IMG/VR virus record: IMGVR_UViG_2718217869_000002
Location: 1 to 43,574 of that record
Direction: 5' to 3' (one strand)
DNA length: 43,574 bases
Source of the DNA: a virus
Lineage: Duplodnaviria > Heunggongvirae > Uroviricota > Caudoviricetes
Part shown: positions 1 through 43,574 of the stretch, piece after piece
How the letters are laid out: each line of letters starts with the position of its first letter
Position numbering within the stretch: the first letter of the stretch is position 1
Program-made: the position numbers and the translations under genes
The notes under the pieces: generated by a model
Seen by the model: only the letters and a program-made list of their open reading frames with translations
The model's database searches: none
What the model was told of the DNA's origin: nothing

Positions 1-1248
1 ATGGCACTGAATATTCCATTCAGAAATGCGTACTATCGTTTTGCATCCAGTTACTCATTTCTCTTTTTTATTTCCTGGTCGCTGTGGTGGTCGTTATACG
101 CTATTTGGCTGAAAGGACATCTAGGATTAACAGGGACGGAATTAGGTACACTTTATTCGGTCAACCAGTTTACCAGCATTCTATTTATGATGTTCTACGG
201 CATCGTTCAGGATAAACTCGGTCTGAAGAAACCGCTCATCTGGTGTATGAGTTTCATTCTGGTCTTGACCGGACCGTTTATGATTTACGTTTATGAACCG
301 TTACTGCAAAGCAATTTTTCTGTAGGTCTAATTCTGGGGGCGCTCTTTTTTGGCCTGGGGTATCTGGCGGGATGCGGTTTGCTTGACAGCTTCACCGAAA
401 AAATGGCGCGAAATTTTCATTTCGAATATGGAACAGCGCGCGCCTGGGGATCTTTTGGCTATGCTATTGGCGCGTTCTTTGCCGGTATATTTTTTAGTAT
501 CAGTCCCCATATCAACTTCTGGTTGGTCTCGCTATTTGGCGCTGTATTTATGATGATCAACATGCGTTTTAAAGATAAGGATCACCAGTGCATAGCGGCG
601 GATGCGGGAGGGGTAAAAAAAGAGGATTTTATCGCAGTTTTCAAGGATCGAAACTTCTGGGTTTTTGTCATATTTATTGTGGGGACGTGGTCTTTCTATA
701 ACATTTTTGATCAACAACTCTTTCCTGTCTTTTATGCAGGTTTATTCGAATCACACGATGTAGGAACGCGCCTGTATGGTTATCTCAACTCATTCCAGGT
801 GGTACTCGAAGCGCTGTGCATGGCGATTATTCCTTTCTTTGTGAATCGGGTAGGGCCAAAAAATGCATTACTTATCGGTGTTGTGATTATGGCGTTGCGT
901 ATCCTTTCCTGCGCGTTGTTCGTTAACCCCTGGATTATTTCATTAGTGAAGCTGTTACATGCCATTGAGGTTCCACTTTGTGTCATATCCGTCTTCAAAT
1001 ACAGCGTGGCAAACTTTGATAAGCGCCTGTCGTCGACGATCTTTCTGATTGGTTTTCAAATTGCCAGTTCGCTTGGGATTGTGCTGCTTTCAACGCCGAC
1101 TGGGATACTCTTTGACCACGCAGGCTACCAGACAGTTTTCTTCGCAATTTCGGGTATTGTCTGCCTGATGTTGCTATTTGGCATTTTCTTCCTGAGTAAA
1201 AAACGCGAGCAAATAGTTATGGAAACGCCTATACCTTCAGCAATATAG
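1..1248 (+). CDS. cscB: Sucrose:H+ symporter (LacY-family oligosaccharide permease, MFS)
   Basis: 415-aa hydrophobic 12-TM-like protein; sequence recognised as E. coli sucrose permease CscB; ORF starts at nt 1 and is complete. Confidence 0.85.
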   Translation: MALNIPFRNAYYRFASSYSFLFFISWSLWWSLYAIWLKGHLGLTGTELGTLYSVNQFTSILFMMFYGIVQDKLGLKKPLIWCMSFILVLTGPFMIYVYEPLLQSNFSVGLILGALFFGLGYLAGCGLLDSFTEKMARNFHFEYGTARAWGSFGYAIGAFFAGIFFSISPHINFWLVSLFGAVFMMINMRFKDKDHQCIAADAGGVKKEDFIAVFKDRNFWVFVIFIVGTWSFYNIFDQQLFPVFYAGLFESHDVGTRLYGYLNSFQVVLEALCMAIIPFFVNRVGPKNALLIGVVIMALRILSCALFVNPWIISLVKLLHAIEVPLCVISVFKYSVANFDKRLSSTIFLIGFQIASSLGIVLLSTPTGILFDHAGYQTVFFAISGIVCLMLLFGIFFLSKKREQIVMETPIPSAI

Positions 1249-8027: not shown

Positions 8028-8221
8028 TTGCGTATTTTCATGAAAGGAGATCACTCAATAACTTCCATCGAGATCGGGTAATAACATTTGAACAGATCGC
8101 TGAATAACATCGATGGAGATCACTTTTGACTCATTTTGTTATTCAGTGATCTCCATCAATGTTATTGGAACTTCACAGGTGTGTTGATCTGTATCTTTTG
8201 CCATTCCGGTAAAGGATACCT

Positions 8222-9763
8222 ATGCCAACAGTTCCAATTTCTATGAGAAAACTTAAAGAAATTCTTAGGCTTAAATACGGTGTTGGACTCAGCCATCGAC
8301 AAATTGGTCGTAGTCTTGCAATCTCCCCTTCCGTTGTATCCAGATATGCTAATCGGGCGGCTCAACTTGGCATAAAGCAGTGGCCCTTACCTACAGGATG
8401 GGATGATACAAAACTAAAACATGCGTTCCTTCAGACCCAGGTTAAGATGAAGAAGCACTCTCTGCCTGACTGGGCTACAGTACACCGGGAACTGCGTAAT
8501 AAATGCGTGACGCTGCAGCTACTCTGGGAAGAATACTGTGAGCGTAATCCAGGCGGTTTTTACAGCTATAACCATTACTGCCGGATGTACCGTGAATGGC
8601 TCAAAACCACTTCACCATCAATGCGTCAGGTACATAAAGCTGGCGAAAAACTTTTCGTTGATTACTGTGGACCTACCGTTGGCGTTACCGACCCTGAGAC
8701 CGGAGAAATAAGAACTGCTCAGGTCATCGTAGCTGTTCTCGGGGCATCAAGTTACACATGGGCAGAGGCCACCTGGTCTCAGCAGCTTGAAGACTGGGTG
8801 ATGAGTCATGTTCGCTGCTTCCAGTGGTTGGGTGGCGTTCCTGAACTTGTTGTTCCGGACAATCTGAAAAGCGCCACATCCAGGGCATGTAAGTATGATC
8901 CTGACGTTAACCCTACCTACCAGCAGATGCTTGAGCATTATAATGTCGCAGTTTTGCCTGCGCGGCCACGTAAACCGAAAGATAAAGCCAAAGCTGAAGT
9001 TGGCGTTCAGGTTGTTGAACGCTGGATCATGGCCCGAATCAGGCATGAGATCTTCTACAGCCTTGCATCGCTTAATCAGCGCATTCGGGAGTTGCTGGAA
9101 AGACTGAATAACAAAATAATGCAGAAGTTGGGTTATTCACGTGCAGAACTCTTCATCCAGCTTGATAAACCCGCACTGAAGCCTCTTCCTGAAGCCAGTT
9201 ACAGTTACACCCTGGTGAAGAAAGTCAGAGTTCATGCCGATTACCACGTGGAAATCGACAAACATTACTACTCGGTTCCATGTTCGCTGTTAGGCCAGCA
9301 ACTGGAAGCATGGATCTCCGGAGAACTGGTAAGACTCTTCAATCAGGGGCAGGAGGTTGCTGTGCACCCGCGCAAGCGTACTTATGGCTACAGTACCCGC
9401 AACGAGCACATGCCTGAAGCTCATCGACAGCATGCCACCTGGACGCCAGAGCGTCTTCTGGAATGGGCGGGGCACATAGGCAGTGAAACTCATAGTTATG
9501 TGCTTCATATACTGAACTCTCGTCCACATCCGGAACAAAGCTATCGCTTCTGCCTTGGACTCCTGAACCTTCATAAAAAATACAGTAAAGCCAGACTTAA
9601 TGCAGCATGTGCAAGAGCTCTGAAAACAAAGGTATGGCGTCTGTCAGGTATTAAATCGATCCTGGAAAAAGGTCTGGATAAACAACCTGTTCAGGATCCA
9701 AAACCAGATCTGTTATCCACGATGGAACACGAAAACGTACGCGGCAGTGAGTATTACCACTGA
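8222..9763 (+). CDS. istA: IS21-family transposase IstA
   Basis: 513 aa with N-terminal HTH and DDE integrase-core-like region; size and tandem arrangement with istB. Confidence 0.8.
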   Translation: MPTVPISMRKLKEILRLKYGVGLSHRQIGRSLAISPSVVSRYANRAAQLGIKQWPLPTGWDDTKLKHAFLQTQVKMKKHSLPDWATVHRELRNKCVTLQLLWEEYCERNPGGFYSYNHYCRMYREWLKTTSPSMRQVHKAGEKLFVDYCGPTVGVTDPETGEIRTAQVIVAVLGASSYTWAEATWSQQLEDWVMSHVRCFQWLGGVPELVVPDNLKSATSRACKYDPDVNPTYQQMLEHYNVAVLPARPRKPKDKAKAEVGVQVVERWIMARIRHEIFYSLASLNQRIRELLERLNNKIMQKLGYSRAELFIQLDKPALKPLPEASYSYTLVKKVRVHADYHVEIDKHYYSVPCSLLGQQLEAWISGELVRLFNQGQEVAVHPRKRTYGYSTRNEHMPEAHRQHATWTPERLLEWAGHIGSETHSYVLHILNSRPHPEQSYRFCLGLLNLHKKYSKARLNAACARALKTKVWRLSGIKSILEKGLDKQPVQDPKPDLLSTMEHENVRGSEYYH

Positions 9764-9774
9764 TACGGGATCCA

Positions 9775-10524
9775 ATGATGAATCATCTTTACGAACAACT
9801 GACCGCACTTAAACTCACCGGCTTCCGTGATGCGCTTAAAAAGCAACTTGCTCAACCGGGCACATACCAGGAGCTGGGCTTCGAAGAACGCCTGTCATTA
9901 CTGACAGCAGAAGAACTAACCTGCCGTGAAAACAGGAAGGCAGAGCGTCTGATCAAACATGCACGGTTCAGACTTAATGCTGAGTTATCAAAGCTGGATT
10001 ATCGTAACAATAGAGGGCTGGACAGGGCCCTCATCCGTTCACTCAGTCAGGGAAACTGGTTAACCCTGAAACAAAATATTTTACTGACCGGGGCCACCGG
10101 CAGCGGTAAAACGTTCCTGGCATGTGCACTTGGTCATAATGCCTGCCGACAGGGATACAAGGTCTACTATTATCGCCTTAAAGCGCTGATGGAACAGTGC
10201 TATCAGGGGCATGCTGATGGAAGATACAGCAAACTTTTGACCAGGCTGAATAATAGCGATCTGCTGCTTCTGGATGACTGGGGGCTGGAACCTCTCTCAT
10301 CAGAACAGCGTAGCGACCTGCTGGAAATAGTGGATCTGATGTACCAACGAGGCTCAATCATCGTAGTGAGCCAGTTGCCGGTGGAAAACTGGTACAAAAT
10401 GATCGGAGACTCCACACATGCGGATGCCATCCTAGATCGACTGGTTCATGGCAGTATCAAGATCGAACTTAAAGGAGAATCAATGCGGAAAATACAATCT
10501 CCGTTGACCGAAGGAGATCAGTGA
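9775..10524 (+). CDS. istB: IS21-family helper ATPase IstB
   Basis: 249 aa with Walker A LTGATGSGKTFLA and Walker B LLLLDD motifs. Confidence 0.85.
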   Translation: MMNHLYEQLTALKLTGFRDALKKQLAQPGTYQELGFEERLSLLTAEELTCRENRKAERLIKHARFRLNAELSKLDYRNNRGLDRALIRSLSQGNWLTLKQNILLTGATGSGKTFLACALGHNACRQGYKVYYYRLKALMEQCYQGHADGRYSKLLTRLNNSDLLLLDDWGLEPLSSEQRSDLLEIVDLMYQRGSIIVVSQLPVENWYKMIGDSTHADAILDRLVHGSIKIELKGESMRKIQSPLTEGDQ

Positions 10525-36758: not shown

Positions 36759-37244
36759 CTATCTGATATTACTGCTACTGTTGCATGTTACCGTGTTTCC
36801 AAATCCTGAATTGCAGTTTGTATATGTGTCAACGCGTGTTGGGTAAGGTTGAGTTATAACAGGCTGGCGCGCTTTTTGCTCGATCGCTTGCATTGTGTTT
36901 ACAGCCTGATAATTCAATAAAGCCTGCTGGAATGCTTGGCTTTGTGCTATTTGTTGGGCTTGTTCTTGGCTTTGTAATTGAACATAAAGATTCTGAAGCT
37001 CAAGTCTTGCCTGTGCGTCACTTATCTTGCCTTCATCGACACCTTGCCCGAGCATCTTTGCAGCAAGGACATACAGCTTAGGTGTTGGTGCTGATGCCAT
37101 GCGTGAGTCGTTCTTCACACTGGCATCAAGGCAATTAGCCATATCGCTAAGCTTTGGATGGCGTTGTTCGCAACTTGCTTGATAGTCACTTACTTTTGCG
37201 CATCCAACCAGCAGAATCGGGATAATTAACAGTGATTTTTTCAT
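36759..37244 (-). CDS. Lipoprotein of unknown function downstream of mnt (sieA position)
   Basis: 161 aa from ATG 37244 with AAGGAG RBS; signal peptide plus lipobox LLVGC; Gln-rich helical middle, Cys-containing C-terminus. Confidence 0.6.
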   Translation of the reverse strand: MKKSLLIIPILLVGCAKVSDYQASCEQRHPKLSDMANCLDASVKNDSRMASAPTPKLYVLAAKMLGQGVDEGKISDAQARLELQNLYVQLQSQEQAQQIAQSQAFQQALLNYQAVNTMQAIEQKARQPVITQPYPTRVDTYTNCNSGFGNTVTCNSSSNIR

Positions 37245-37314
37245 ATGGTTAACTCTCCTTAGTTTTTCACAGGATAGCATGAAGGCAATGCCATTTTAGC
37301 CGGAAACTAGATTT

Positions 37315-37581
37315 CTATGTTTCCTTTTTATTATTGCTATACATGGTCTTAAGCGTTTCAAATACCATTTTCTTAACCATATCAGATTGTTGTTCTGCCA
37401 TACGCTCTGCATCGTCAATGTAAACGGATGCAGAGCTTTGTTTAGCCAATGATTCTTCAATCGCTGCAATTATCTCTGAGTTCAGCGACCTGTTATTCAT
37501 CTTCGCACGCTGTTTAATTTTCGCGTGGAGTTCATGCGGAAGTCTCAAGTGAAACTGCGCCTCGTCGTATTTGCTGTACAT
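37315..37581 (-). CDS. mnt: Mnt-like ribbon-helix-helix repressor
   Basis: 88 aa; FHLRLPHELHAKIKQRAKMNNRSLNSEIIAAIEESL...DDAERMAEQQSDMVKKMVFETLK similar to P22 Mnt; no arc/ant partner present. Confidence 0.75.
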   Translation of the reverse strand: MYSKYDEAQFHLRLPHELHAKIKQRAKMNNRSLNSEIIAAIEESLAKQSSASVYIDDAERMAEQQSDMVKKMVFETLKTMYSNNKKET

Positions 37582-37702
37582 CCTTGATGCCTCACCAGTT
37601 GGGTGGAATGGCATCGTAACCTACTGGATAAATACTCAATAGTACCATTTCTGTATGCAATCACATCATGGTTGCATCATATCATTCGTCTGGAGCAATG
37701 AA

Positions 37703-39514
37703 ATGTCAGATATCACCGCAAACTTAGTGGTAGGGATGCCTTCGCAGCTTTTCACGCTGGCACGCTCATTTAAAGCAAATGCCAACGGTAAAATCTATCT
37801 TGGGCTACCAGATACCGATCCTACAATCCCAGCGAACCAAATCCCTGTTTATATTGAAAGTGAAACTGGAGATCTGATTCCAACTGCTCAGCCGATAGTC
37901 ATTAACGCGGGTGGCTATCCTGTTTACAACGGGCAGATATCAAAGTTCGTTACTGTGCAGAATTACAGTATGACTGTTTATGACGCCTATGGCTCTCAGC
38001 AGTTCTACTTCCCTGACATTGCAAAATACGACCCAGATCAGTTAAGGCAACAGCTTGAGAGTAGTTCTGGTGCTGACATTGTAATGACTGGATCAGCTCC
38101 ATTCATTGTTAGAAGTGTTGGCGACATTCTAAAAGACATTCCTACCAATAAATATTTTGGTGCGAAATGTGATGGTGTAACTGATGATACAGTAGCGAAT
38201 CAAACTGCTCTTGATTGGTCTGCTGATAACAAAAGAACTGTTCTTTTTGTTGGCAAGTCATGTACATCATCCAGGTTGGTTTTAAAAAGCGGAGCGAGGA
38301 TGGAGAACATAGGTTCAATAGCTCCTAAAAATTTCACTGACACAGTTGTTATAGAAATAAAGGATGATTCATGGAGGACTCCATATAATGACGGGATAAC
38401 AGCAATTCAGACTGGAAATCGGGTTCTTCTGAATAATATTAACATAGAACCTGACGAAGTGATAAATGCTGTTGGTATTTATGGAACTGATGGAGTTGGT
38501 CCTGTAATTAATAATGCCAGAATATTTAACATGAGAAATGGAGGTGTTGATATTGAAAAGGGATATGAATGGAAATTTTCAAACTTGTCTATTGTGGCTC
38601 CTTTCGATCAGTCAATAGACTCTACAGCACCAGGAATTCTCCATAGAACAAGTGATAGCATGTATCACAATACAACAGTTACAGGTTACACAACTGGCAT
38701 GAGGATCACGTCTGGTGCTAATGATGTAACAAATACCCATGTATGGGGTCTTGCAGGAAGCAGAACAACCAGGGTAATGCTTATTGGATTAGACGTGTCA
38801 GGGAGCGCTAACAACATTACAAACTTCTATAGCGACTCACCACACAAGAAAGATTCAACACCTGCTAGCGTTACTAACGGTGGGATTGCATTTAATATCT
38901 CAGGATTCAACAACACGTTTAACGGATGCCGAGCATTGTTTCATCATGATGATGGAACCAAGTATGGAAAGATTTTTAATATTACAGGAACTGAGAATAC
39001 ATTCTTGTCATCTATGTGCTCAGATTTATCAGGAGTTGAGGATGCAGGTATCTTTGTTTTCTCTGGTTCCGGGACTCCAGTAAATAACTATGTGTATGGT
39101 GGTAATATTCAGAGTCTGTATGTTTTCCCTCAGTCTGTTGGATTCAACCCTACAATAAATGCTCCGTGTACCTATACTTCACAAATATACAGGCATGAAT
39201 TGACTCAGCGCAACGTATCAGGAAGACTAACCATTTCTTGTAATATCACAAGTAATGTTGGTTCTGGTGCTTTTTCTATAACCCTTCCGTCATATTTAAG
39301 CTCGTTTAAAGGTGATTGCATGGGTTCTATACTTACTATATTAAATAGTGCAATAAGGACTGACACTAATTTATTGGAGGTAAATGGTTACATTACAGGA
39401 GGTAAAATTTTCTTCCGCAGAATCTTTAGGTCAGGCTCACCTGTTGATGTTCAGATAACAGATCTGATAACAGGTAATGCAACAATAGACTTAAGCTTTT
39501 CTTGTTGTTTATGA
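37703..39514 (+). CDS. Tailspike protein (P22-type head-binding N-domain, divergent beta-helix receptor-binding domain)
   Basis: N-terminus [52 protein letters not shown] matches P22 gp9 residues 1-110; remainder unrelated with beta-helix-like repeats. Confidence 0.85.
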
Positions 39515-39566
39515 TTTTAATTTGATGCCGGATTGGGTTTTATTCTTTCCGGCACCAAAAAAATAA

Positions 39567-40994
39567 TCATTTACATGGATTTATTCCGTAATATATTACA
39601 ATATCATCTTTATATCTGAATATTGAGTAATATCTTGATGAAATCAATGGCTCTGATTTGATGCCACAAACCATGCGCAACATGCCGCTTTTAACAACGT
39701 TATTATAAAGTGCAACATTTTTTATGTTGTACTGTTGCATTATAGAAATTGATATCCATGGCACAGCCGGGCTATATATCTGCCTAATAAATTTGTTAGC
39801 AGACAGTATCTTCCCGGTTATCCGCGAATTATATATGTCTCCGTAAGCGTAAACATATCCCTTGAAATCAAGTTTAGATAGATCATTAGCTGCAAGTGAA
39901 ATAACAAATTCCTCATACTTTCTTTGCTCTTTTATGGCATTCGAAAATAGAAAAGAAGTAGATAAGGAGAAAAACAAAATAACAGATACGAATGCAGTGT
40001 AAGTATTTTTATTAAACGCCTTATAAAATGAATAAATGAACAATGCTATAGAAGCAGAAAGGCCAGACAATACCCTAACGTCTGTTATACCCTCCCTTAA
40101 AAGAAATGCAGGCCCAGTCATGGAAAGTAAAATTGCAACTGGGGATAAAGTAATAAATAAAATATTTACCACACCTTCATTTCTTGACTTTATGACATAC
40201 GTCAAATAACAAAATAAAAAACACGCGGCACCTAAAATAACTATAAATTCATATAACTTGCCTACCAAGCCAAAATAAAAGTATACCTTTTCTAGGGATG
40301 ACATGAAAGATTTAATAATATCGGATGGGTCGATGTATGACGCCCTTCCTGAATTCATCTTGAAAAAATAACTTATCAATATGAAGTATAATAAATATGA
40401 TGATAAAAAAACTAAAAGAGATTTTATGTTTGATATTTTTGCATATTTATAAACTGCGTTACCTGCAACTAATGTTATAAATATGTTGGCGCAAGGCTGA
40501 TACAGGCAAAGAGATGATACTAGAAGTATCACTGAAAAAACTATCGATACTTTTCTTTTTTCGTCATATATAAAAAAAGATAAAACACAAAGCGCTGTAG
40601 CCAATACCATAGTGAACGAGTCAAACTGATATGCAGCGTTCTGAATGAAAAATGGAGTTACAAAGATAGATGTCAAGAATAAAGAAAAAACGAATTTATT
40701 GTTTTCTTGAGATAATTTATCTGAAACATACCAAATTACAGCAGATGCAACTATCACGCCTGTTAGTAATGGCATAGGTGCTGTATTAGGAAGCATTTTA
40801 AAGTTCAAAGAGAATATATGCATTAGGAAATCGGAAAGAGGTCTTCCCAAAACCCCCCACCCATCAAAAGAAAACAATGATCTATCTAAGTCATCCCTGT
40901 AAAGAACATCCGCGGATATTATTGGATAGAAAAATATCGCAATTAAAAACAATGGGATGTAAAAATATTTAGAATTAAACATTCCTATTTTCAC
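39567..40994 (-). CDS. Serotype-specific O-antigen glucosyltransferase (GtrC-type polytopic membrane protein)
   Basis: 475 aa, many TM segments, very AT-rich coding sequence; third gene of gtrA-gtrB-gtr(type) cluster. Confidence 0.7.
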
Positions 40995-41904
40995 CTTTCT
41001 TTAGTATGTACTTTGGTCTTTTTTTGGTTTCTATGTATATGCGTCCAATGTATTCACCAAGGACACCAATCCCAATCAATTGAATGCCGCCAAGGAAAAG
41101 TATGGAAACCAACAGTGACGGGTATCCAGGAACACTATTACCGAAAAGAAGCTTATCTAAAATCATCCACGCGCCATAAATGAATGACAGGCTGGCGACA
41201 GCAAGTCCGATGTATGTCCACATGCGCAATGGAAAAGTTGAGAAACTGGTGATTCCTTCAAGCGCGAGATTCCACAGCTTCCAGCCATTGAACTTGCTGT
41301 CACCAGCTATGCGTTCTGCGCGAGCATACTCGACGACGTCAGTCTTTCCACCAACCCAGCTAAGTATGCCTTTCATAAACAGGTTGCGTTCAGGCATTGA
41401 TTTAATGTTCTCAACCACTTCACGCGACATAAGCCGAAAGTCTCCGACGTTTTCCTCAATCTTCGGATTGCTTATTTTATTGTGGAGCTTATAGAACCAC
41501 TCAGCCGTTTTTCGCTTCAGTCTGCCATCCGTTGAGCGGTCAGATCGTTTAGCAAGCACCATATCAGCGCCTGCCTGCCATTTTTCAATCAGTTGAGGTA
41601 TTACCTCAATCGGGTCTTGCAGGTCAACATCAATAGGAATAACAGCATCGCCTGTTGCATGGTCTAACCCTGCAAACAATGCTGGTTCTTTACCAAAGTT
41701 GCGCGTAAATGACAGCGGAACAACTAGCGGATCAGAAACAGCCAGAGCGTAAATTATTGACTCTGTAGAGTCTTTGCTGCCGTCATTTATGAAAACAATT
41801 TCCACCTCATATGGCTTCAACTCTTCGAGTTCACGTACCGTTTTATAAAAAATTGGTATCGCTTCTTCTTCATTGAAGACAGGAACTACAAGAGATATCT
41901 TCAT
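40975..41904 (-). CDS. gtrB: Bactoprenol glucosyltransferase GtrB (GT2 family)
   Basis: 309 aa; N-terminal GT2 motifs ([21 protein letters not shown]) and two C-terminal TM helices. Confidence 0.85.
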
Positions 41905-42263
41905 TTCGCATCCCTAAAGACAATGAACTTTGAATATACGAAACCGCACACCAGGCTGATGGCGGAGAAAGTGATAAGGGTTAGCATCGGGGGAAGTGCG
42001 CATCTATCAGCAGCCCATCCAACAGTTGCACTCAGTGTTCCCATGAACCCGACATATAACATGTAGCGCATCGTTGTAGTCGATGCTTTGAATGTGAATT
42101 TTGCATTCGCGAAGAAGCTAAAGCTCACAGCCACAACGAAACCTGCGAAGTTTGCAAGAGCCTGGTTTGTATGCGCTGCATAGATACAAACACCAAAAAC
42201 CACCCAGTGTATAAGTGTGTTCAGCACACCAATCGAGGTGTACTTTGCAAATAGCTTTAACAT
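41901..42263 (-). CDS. gtrA: GtrA flippase-like small membrane protein
   Basis: 120 aa, four TM helices, immediately upstream of gtrB. Confidence 0.8.
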
Positions 42264-42416
42264 TTCTTCTATCAGCTAATAATCAAAGGCATGAAGTCTA
42301 TCATCCAAGTCTCAATCGATCGATGACTTGCTGTGGTTGATGAGGCAAAACTGAGACAAACAAAGCTTTGTACTGGATTGCAAGGTTTTGTGCTCTTCGA
42401 TAGTGGTTAAGGTGGA

Positions 42417-43574
42417 TCACTCCACCTTTTCATCAAGCCAATCCGCCCACCACTGCATCATTTCTCTGCGCTTATCGAGATACTGTGCATGGTTGTAAAT
42501 CCCGCGCACAGATCCGCCGTTGGCATGTGCCAGTTGCACTTCAATAGCGTCAGCAGGCCATTCGTGCTCGTTCATAATTGTGCTGAATTCATGCCTGAAT
42601 CCGTGACCGCTTTCCAGACCCTCATAGCCGATTTGTTTGATCACAAGCAATACCGCGTTCTCGCAGATTGGCTTCTTCTTATCGTTGCGCCCGGCAAAAA
42701 CAAACTCTGATACTGGTTTAGTGATGGAGCTTAGCGTAGTGAGAAGTTCATCCACCTGGTCTGACATAGGAACAACATGAATCTTGCGGCCCTTCATCAC
42801 ACTGGCGTCGATAGTGATAATCCTGTTTTCAAAATCGACGTTCTTCCATTGCATGGAACGAAGCTCTTTCGTTCTTAGGGCTGTGTAGCGTAAAACTTTG
42901 GTCGCAATGAGCGATACGATGCTTCCTGAAAATGTTGCAAGTGCTTTGTTAAATGCCGGGATCTGGTCTGCAGGAAGAAACGGGAAGTTCTTCTTGCGGT
43001 ATCCCTTCATGGCGTCAGCAAGGTCAGGTGCCGGGTTATATTTAGCCCTTCCGGTGACAATAGCGTAACGGAAAACCTCGCCGCATCTTCTGCGTGCTTT
43101 GTTTGCTCGCTCCATTGCGCCGCGATCTTCAAATCTGCGGATTACTTCCAACAGTTGCATCGGCTCAATATCCTGAATTTCAAGGCCGCCGATGATGGGT
43201 AAAATGTCGTCATCAAACATTTTTGCAAGTTCATTTGCATAGCCTACTGACCAGACTTGCTTCTTGTGCTCGTACCATTCCTTGTAAATGGCGCTAAAGG
43301 AGTTGTTGTTAGACGAAGCCTTTTTCGCTTTTACCGGATCGATTCCAACCGAGATGTCTTTCCTCGCAGTCCATGCTTTATCCCTTGCCTCCTGCAAAGT
43401 CATAAGCGGATATTTTCCTACGGTCAGTATTTTTTCCTTACCGTCAATCTTGTAGCGAAGCTGCCATACCTTTTTCCCGGATACAGGGACATAAAGGTAC
43501 AGGCCATTACCATCGAGAAGGCGGTATGGTTTTTCTTTCGGCTTTGCTGCTTCAATCTGCTTAACGGTGAGCAT
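42417..43574 (-). CDS. intS: Tyrosine integrase (IntS/CPS-53 type)
   Basis: 385 aa; C-terminal catalytic R..H..R..Y region (HGFRHEF..., ...LAHANG...RGIYNHAQY); start codon at window end, transcribed toward gtrA. Confidence 0.9.
   Translation of the reverse strand: MLTVKQIEAAKPKEKPYRLLDGNGLYLYVPVSGKKVWQLRYKIDGKEKILTVGKYPLMTLQEARDKAWTARKDISVGIDPVKAKKASSNNNSFSAIYKEWYEHKKQVWSVGYANELAKMFDDDILPIIGGLEIQDIEPMQLLEVIRRFEDRGAMERANKARRRCGEVFRYAIVTGRAKYNPAPDLADAMKGYRKKNFPFLPADQIPAFNKALATFSGSIVSLIATKVLRYTALRTKELRSMQWKNVDFENRIITIDASVMKGRKIHVVPMSDQVDELLTTLSSITKPVSEFVFAGRNDKKKPICENAVLLVIKQIGYEGLESGHGFRHEFSTIMNEHEWPADAIEVQLAHANGGSVRGIYNHAQYLDKRREMMQWWADWLDEKVE

Follow-up and report, generated by a model that had tools for sequence, protein, structure and literature searches.

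Which O-antigen does the P22-like phage in IMG/VR record IMGVR_UViG_2718217869_000002 recognize, and how might its lysogen alter that same polymer? The record (43,574 nucleotides, here called the window) matches, at 100% identity, a P22/Sf6-like prophage that sits at the tRNA-Arg gene argW of Escherichia coli Ecol_545, in which RefSeq calls the same genes, and the question arises from a tailspike gene that lies convergent with a gtrC-gtrB-gtrA cluster. A sequence-only reading had taken positions 37703 to 42263 for a serotype-conversion module, in which gtrABC genes with a type-specific GtrC accompany a tailspike of the P22 type whose receptor domain has been swapped; domains and homology agree with this, and the limits fall exactly on the RefSeq tailspike start (37703) and the gtrA start codon on the minus strand (42263). 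We give a probability of roughly 75% to the reading that the module is the receptor and serotype-conversion end of a P22-like temperate phage residing at argW of O153-type E. coli and that it acts through the steps set out below. The overall mechanism follows the standard scheme of P22-like converting phages; what is added is an uncharacterized GtrC type and a tailspike specificity predictable as O153-type. Sequence comparison of related prophages also provides good support for an exchange of the receptor domain and gtrC (∼38059 to 40982, 2.9 kb) as one unit between unrelated prophages, a result that falls within known phage mosaicism.

The tailspike, of 603 amino acids (aa), starts in RefSeq at 37703 (MSDITANL...), with the mechanically called open reading frame (ORF) beginning upstream at 37655. 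As had been proposed, it keeps only the N terminus of the P22 type: the Pfam family Head_binding (PF09008) covers residues 1 to 113 (E value of 9e-56), the remainder has no Pfam match, and sequence matches in the PDB were to the head-binding domains of Sf6 gp14 and P22 gp9 only. This virion adaptor occupies codons 1 to ∼119 (37703 to 38058, plus strand) and tracks the podovirus backbone. The receptor-binding domain that follows (38059 to 39514, plus strand) was modeled with confidence, as a monomer, as a right-handed parallel beta-helix with a C-terminal beta domain, which is the fold looked for in a P22-like tailspike and the one suspected beforehand. Residues 114 to 603 are 71.5% identical over ∼490 aa to residues 158 to 648 of TSP3, a tailspike protein of the Agtrevirus AV101 (WJJ54145.1), with the C-terminal ∼165 aa near-identical, and a gene of phage EcoIv28_Lewi matches the domain at 73.5% identity. 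The expectation of a receptor domain distinct from those of characterized phages therefore holds in part, in that no near-identity was found, but the type is not without relatives and its family has an O153-specific member. Purified TSP3 produced halos on O153 E. coli and inhibited AV101 infection of an O153 host, and the AV101 authors noted that TSP3-like domains are present in E. coli prophages (PMC10791037). Homology to TSP3 extends over the full length of the receptor domain, whereas the AV101 protein has an Ackermannviridae TSP N terminus in place of the P22 head-binding domain, and AV101 itself is virulent and has no gtr genes; ∼28% of the receptor residues differ, so that fine specificity may differ. 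In the receptor-domain family as a whole, the N-terminal adaptor is of at least four kinds (PF09008, PF18668, PF03906, or none recognized).

This homology leads us to predict binding of the window tailspike to the O153 O-antigen of E. coli, on which it most likely acts as a hydrolytic endoglycosidase. The fold alone cannot separate a hydrolase from a lyase, and a lyase mechanism was judged unlikely because the O153 repeat unit, reported as Hex2HexNAc2Pent1 with ribofuranose (Ribf), has no uronic acid. Acidic residues that are invariant in the tailspike comparison include D213, E218, D221, D230, D263, D318, D378, and E446. We also note a 437-aa protein, P0086, called a LysR/D-serine deaminase activator (dsdC-like), that is 99% identical to the C-terminal half of the window tailspike and is probably either a deletion remnant of an argW prophage fused to the adjoining dsdC region or a gene-calling artifact.

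Across a 52-bp spacer between the two stop codons (39515 to 39566) lies the gtr operon, with overlapping genes in the order gtrA-gtrB-gtrC beside the phage integrase, the layout of a Gtr system. Spacers at homologous loci measure 24 to 54 bp; a consensus scan of the 52-bp gap found no terminator, and a bidirectional terminator there was rejected. GtrA (41901 to 42263, minus strand; 120 aa, PF04138, E value of 1.3e-13) is a small membrane protein with annotated homologs in Shigella phages and a proposed undecaprenyl-phosphate-glucose flippase, and its gene overlaps (41901 to 41904) that of GtrB (40975 to 41904, minus strand), a bactoprenol-phosphate glucosyltransferase of the GT2 family (PF00535, E value of 2e-31) with two C-terminal hydrophobic segments (residues 231 to 286). 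Both genes are 83 to 87% identical in nucleotide sequence to those of SfI, SfII, SfIV, SfV, and Hf4s. The third gene, gtrC (39567 to 40982, minus strand), encodes a predicted type-specific glucosyltransferase matching the Pfam family GtrII (PF14264) in an ORF of 471 or 475 aa, depending on the start. It had been described as a very AT-rich polytopic transferase of 475 aa, of which the composition (32.1% GC versus 46.6% for the whole window) and the polytopic character stand; the length does not, since 475 aa counts from an upstream GTG at 40994, whereas RefSeq and all homologs give 471 aa from the ATG at 40982, leaving an 8-nucleotide overlap with gtrB (40975 to 40982). The receptor domain is at 38.2% GC, and gtrB, gtrA, and the integrase gene return to 43 to 47%.

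A fold search assigned GtrC a GT-C fold, and the protein has the invariant DD...R...W...GRP motif, features looked for in the type-specific third gene of Gtr systems; a sequence search of the PDB gave chance matches only (E values of ≥0.15). This GtrC is rare: its 90%-identity cluster comprises 60 sequences from E. coli, beyond which come relatives at 69%, 51%, and 49% identity that have no functional name. The best matches among sequenced phages are 27 to 33% identical and belong to a Hafnia phage and to the N-terminal 190 residues of P22 GtrC (≤33%), and the GtrC proteins of Shigella phages SfI, SfII, SfIV, SfV, and SfX and of Hf4s gave no tblastn match at an E value of ≤1e-5. Because the relatives are only distant or unnamed and no Shigella type-specific match was obtained, the specificity of GtrC is uncharacterized, and so, as had been surmised, is the tailspike-gtrC pair as such. 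A frameshifted pseudogene, the eventuality that the sequence-only reading had asked to be checked, was rejected: the gtrC frame is free of internal stops with its motifs and family-invariant residues kept, and all four genes of the module are full-length with such residues intact.

In its arrangement the locus closely follows P22 gene 9 with gtrABC and the tailspike and gtrC of BTP1, sharing the PF09008 domain and the order of ejection proteins, mnt/arc, tailspike, convergent gtrC-gtrB-gtrA, and int/att. Phages SfI, SfII, SfIV, SfV, SfX, and Hf4s likewise carry gtrA-gtrB-gtr(type) beside int/attP with an AT-rich, divergent third gene, and Hf4s is also a P22-like podovirus with a gtr cluster, but the target O-antigen of these phages is the S. 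flexneri Y backbone or O22-like 4s rather than the predicted O153 type. The K-12 element CPS-53/KpLE1 (yfdG-yfdH-yfdI) has in common the argW site, an IntS-type integrase, and gtrA/gtrB homologs (86.7% nucleotide identity) but, as a cryptic remnant, lacks a tailspike and carries another third gene; in megablast only its gtrAB part aligned, amounting to 28% of the query. Phase variation of the P22 gtr operon involves four GATC sites in two pairs within three OxyR half-sites, all inside the ∼115 bp upstream of gtrA (PMC2909390). That architecture is absent from the 153-bp promoter region between the integrase stop and gtrA (42264 to 42416, minus strand), where GATC occurs just twice, in isolation, at 42318 and 42415 (a distance of 97 bp), and Dam/OxyR phase variation of this kind (P22 gtr, gtrLT2_I type) was rejected for the operon.

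The boundaries of the exchanged segment are seen most clearly in a sister prophage at the same argW site of MLI106K1, a host of the same O-type. The two prophages are 99.9% identical in nucleotide sequence up to 38058 (tailspike codon ∼119) and 99 to 100% identical again from ∼40980 (gtrC start/gtrB stop); between 38058 and ∼40950 they are unalignable or 50 to 80% identical, the receptor domain being unrelated and GtrC 49% identical. We refer to the window version, which comprises the receptor domain, spacer, and gtrC (38059 to 40982) between the conserved head-binding region and gtrB, as cassette A and to that of MLI106K1 as cassette B. Both occur in a lambda-like siphovirus prophage beside yecA, cassette A in 2017C-4173W12 (receptor domain 74% and GtrC 96% identical to the window) and cassette B in TST3 (95% and 98.7% identical to MLI106K1), with breakpoints, sharp in both backbones, at the same two junctions. 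Two backbones, the podovirus at argW and the siphovirus at yecA, are thus each found with two cassettes, while GtrB and GtrA track the backbone (98 to 100% identity within and 83 to 93% between backbones). Paired divergence extends to more distant loci, with a metagenomic P22-like contig matching cassette A at 70% in the receptor domain and 69% in GtrC and a siphovirus-type prophage of Proteus mirabilis matching cassette B at 60% and 55%. Over 15 loci (105 non-independent pairs), GtrC identity correlated with receptor-domain identity at a Spearman coefficient of 0.77, compared with 0.19 for adaptor identity.

We observed some mosaicism within cassette A itself: the last ∼165 tailspike residues and gtrC (39020 to 40982) are kept across backbones at 88% nucleotide identity (96 to 100% aa identity in GtrC), compared with only ∼65 to 80% identity in the beta-helix body (38059 to 39019), and a viral contig (L019) has 100% identity in GtrC and 81% in the receptor domain. 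A separate, unannotated 634-codon frame in FG31-1 (L017, 8500 to 10500; NZ_CP142680.1, ∼1360450 to 1362450) specifies a receptor domain of B-like type, 74% identical in aa sequence to that of MLI106K1, and an acyltransferase comes next; the frame sits in a degraded prophage near yfgI in a genome that also has cassette A at argW, and OY754353 presents the same combination.

Where the O-antigen cluster is intact, the hosts of these cassettes have a common genotype. Between galF and gnd, Ecol_545 encodes three glycosyltransferases, a 588-aa protein without a Pfam family, wzy, and wzx, and its wzy-wzx segment is present in 79 of 5,426 complete genomes, including strain CE-O153H30. The full module was found in five complete genomes, all of them within this set of 79, and in a sixth genome with the gtrC of cassette A, 2017C-4173W12, the O-antigen cluster is 99.97% identical to that of Ecol_545 although the cassette lies in a different phage at a different site. 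The gtrC of cassette A with this receptor domain is therefore accompanied by the O153-type wzx/wzy cluster in 6/6 complete genomes. Cassette B occurs in four complete genomes, three of which are O153-type and the fourth of which (TST3) has no O-antigen cluster, so that every host with an intact O-antigen cluster and either cassette is O153-type. The host genomes are partly clonal, with three 100% identical in the module region, and for about three independent acquisitions we calculate a chance expectation of ∼(79/5426)^3, or roughly 3e-6.

Loss of the O-antigen seems to have occurred in two strains that carry these O-antigen-specific prophages. In TST3 the whole cluster is deleted, leaving wcaM-IS1-gnd (L016, NZ_CP154406.1, 1834272 to 1836612), and O-typing of this strain, which also hosts an 82% A-like receptor domain with an acyltransferase, was for that reason uninformative. 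In 2017C-4173W12, wzx is annotated as truncated (L008, 29081 to 30259), yet over 9.2 kb the cluster aligns without gaps to that of Ecol_545 and differs from it by only 3 substitutions.

We propose that the tailspike would dock on the virion through its conserved head-binding domain and that the beta-helix domain would bind the O153 O-antigen and most likely cleave it hydrolytically, giving the phage access to the outer membrane. In the lysogen, GtrB would make undecaprenyl-phosphate-glucose in the cytoplasm, GtrA would carry it to the periplasmic face, and GtrC, which has an acidic D30-D31 motif after its first membrane segment, would move glucose onto one sugar of the O153 repeat. We infer that glucose is the transferred sugar and the O153 repeat unit its acceptor, a transfer that would add 162 Da to Hex2HexNAc2Pent1. 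The glucosylated polymer would no longer be bound or cleaved by the phage's own tailspike, with the result that kin and other O153-specific phages would be excluded and the lysogen's O-antigen protected. The same logic applies to P22 and BTP1, for which prophage modification of the O-antigen has been shown to block the phage's own tailspike (PMC4413052), and the gtr cluster of Hf4s has been found experimentally to block that phage's own adsorption. A shared O-antigen that receptor domain and GtrC alike have to match would explain why the two are passed on and swapped as a single convergent cassette, with recombination in the conserved stretch encoding the adaptor and in gtrB. That Lederbergviruses have a modification gene behind the receptor-binding protein has been pointed out before (PMC10408124); Davies 2013 makes no mention of tailspikes, an absence that, with incomplete coverage of the literature, is not proof of novelty.

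Several points weigh against this proposal. The specificity of AV101 TSP3 need not carry over at 71.5% identity, and the glucosylation, the acceptor sugar, and the tailspike activity are predicted here from sequence and models. The serological type of the hosts could be O153 or O178, as the O153 reference cluster of Iguchi was reported to be 99.9% identical to that of O178, which DebRoy et al. dispute, and the 6/6 host association represents perhaps 3 independent acquisitions. Nor is the receptor-domain family strictly bound to gtrC, given that A-like and B-like receptor domains both also occur beside acyltransferases, the 82%-identical version in TST3 among them. The prophage may also fail to produce virions, since an insertion sequence (IS), ISEc12, lies in its early region and its Rha regulator gene is frameshifted, though gtr expression would be unaffected.

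The first alternative is that the tailspike-gtrC pairing reflects physical hitchhiking, with recombination at the conserved adaptor region and gtrB carrying whatever lies between and no functional match implied. Recombination at conserved flanks could indeed bring about co-transfer mechanically: the cassette edges fall exactly at the nearest highly conserved blocks usable for homologous recombination, and the A-type receptor domain is found with an acyltransferase instead of gtr and in virulent phages that lack gtr, such as AV101. We nevertheless consider it improbable, because cassettes A and B are both restricted to hosts sharing one O-antigen cluster, a pattern to be expected only when selection fits each half to it, and because co-divergence holds down to 55 to 70% identity and spans genera (Proteus among them), a range over which mere neighbors should have been uncoupled by repeated recombination.

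It is about equally unlikely that the true receptor of the tailspike is something other than native O153, either O153 already glucosylated or acetylated by another prophage, comparable to the dependence of epsilon34 on epsilon15 conversion, or another surface polysaccharide. Such a receptor would be consistent with the small halo that TSP3 gave on an O8 strain, which was judged unrelated to the O-antigen, with the faster divergence of the cassette A beta-helix body relative to gtrC, and with the presence of both receptor families in single hosts (cassette A with a B-like domain and acyltransferase in FG31-1 and OY754353, and cassette B with an A-like domain and acyltransferase in TST3). TSP3, however, inhibited AV101 infection specifically on the O153 host, without such an effect on the O8 host (PMC10791037); the host association, moreover, is with the O153-type wzx/wzy cluster itself. 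Finally, that the module is an inert remnant of a defective prophage, its gtr genes or tailspike no longer expressed or functional, is very improbable despite the ISEc12 insertion beside N, the frameshifted Rha, and a consensus scan that found no strong sigma-70 match upstream of gtrA, as the four genes are full-length with family-invariant residues, five genomes that differ in country and host retain the module at 97.5 to 100% conservation, and gtr operons serve lysogenic conversion, their expression from the prophage not depending on lytic functions (BTP1, PMC4413052).

If GtrC alters O153 as proposed, the resulting variants would be invisible to genotype-based serotyping and could resist O153-targeting phages, depolymerases, antibodies, and glycoconjugate vaccines. 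O153-type E. coli include widespread drug-resistant lineages, with many human clinical and extended-spectrum beta-lactamase (ESBL) isolates in the wzx/wzy set, and O-antigen-specific phages and tailspike enzymes are under development against them (AV101, PMC10791037). A practical rule for these temperate phages would be that the gene convergent with gtrC predicts a receptor domain matched to that GtrC. More tentatively, and with considerable doubt, we suggest that each receptor domain co-evolves with its GtrC, the two making up a "key and lock-changer" cassette that passes as a unit among podovirus, siphovirus, and other temperate backbones, and that O153-type E. coli harbor at least two alternative cassettes (A and B) along with acyltransferase-linked variants, so that O153 would be divided into cryptic sub-serotypes that exclude each other's phages; it is even conceivable that one receptor family needs the other's modification, in a succession of the epsilon15/epsilon34 style.

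The remainder of the window gives the prophage context. An IntS-type tyrosine integrase (42417 to 43574, minus strand; Pfam Phage_integrase and Arm-DNA-bind_3) marks the argW attachment end and corresponds to RefSeq intS, beside tRNA-Arg and yfdC. At the other end, positions 1 to 1248 (plus strand) encode a LacY-family symporter that is the permease of the host csc sucrose regulon and not phage cargo, followed in Ecol_545 by a kinase, cscA, a LacI-type regulator, a dsdX remnant, and dsdA; the left end being host csc DNA, the window overruns the attR end of the prophage. ISEc12, of the IS21 family, contributes istA and istB at 8222 to 10524 (plus strand), beside the N antiterminator gene, and just upstream of it is a run of GATC sites with a 23-bp period (8049, 8072, 8095, and 8118; repeats at 8049 to 8189) that possibly represents IS terminal repeats. 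Across the whole window, GATC is scarcer than expected, with 117 sites versus 184 ± 14 in dinucleotide-preserving shuffles, 100/100 of which were higher. Divergent from the tailspike is a Mnt/Arc-type ribbon-helix-helix repressor of an immI-like region (37315 to 37614, minus strand; Arc PF03869 and Repressor_Mnt PF11423), called an Arc family DNA-binding protein in RefSeq. Between the last ejection-protein gene and mnt, an ORF of 161 to 173 aa (36759 to 37280, minus strand) has a lipoprotein-like signal, MKKSLLIIPILLVGC, and no Pfam family; in P22 the same position is taken by the superinfection-exclusion gene sieA, and on this account we regard the ORF product as a possible exclusion lipoprotein.

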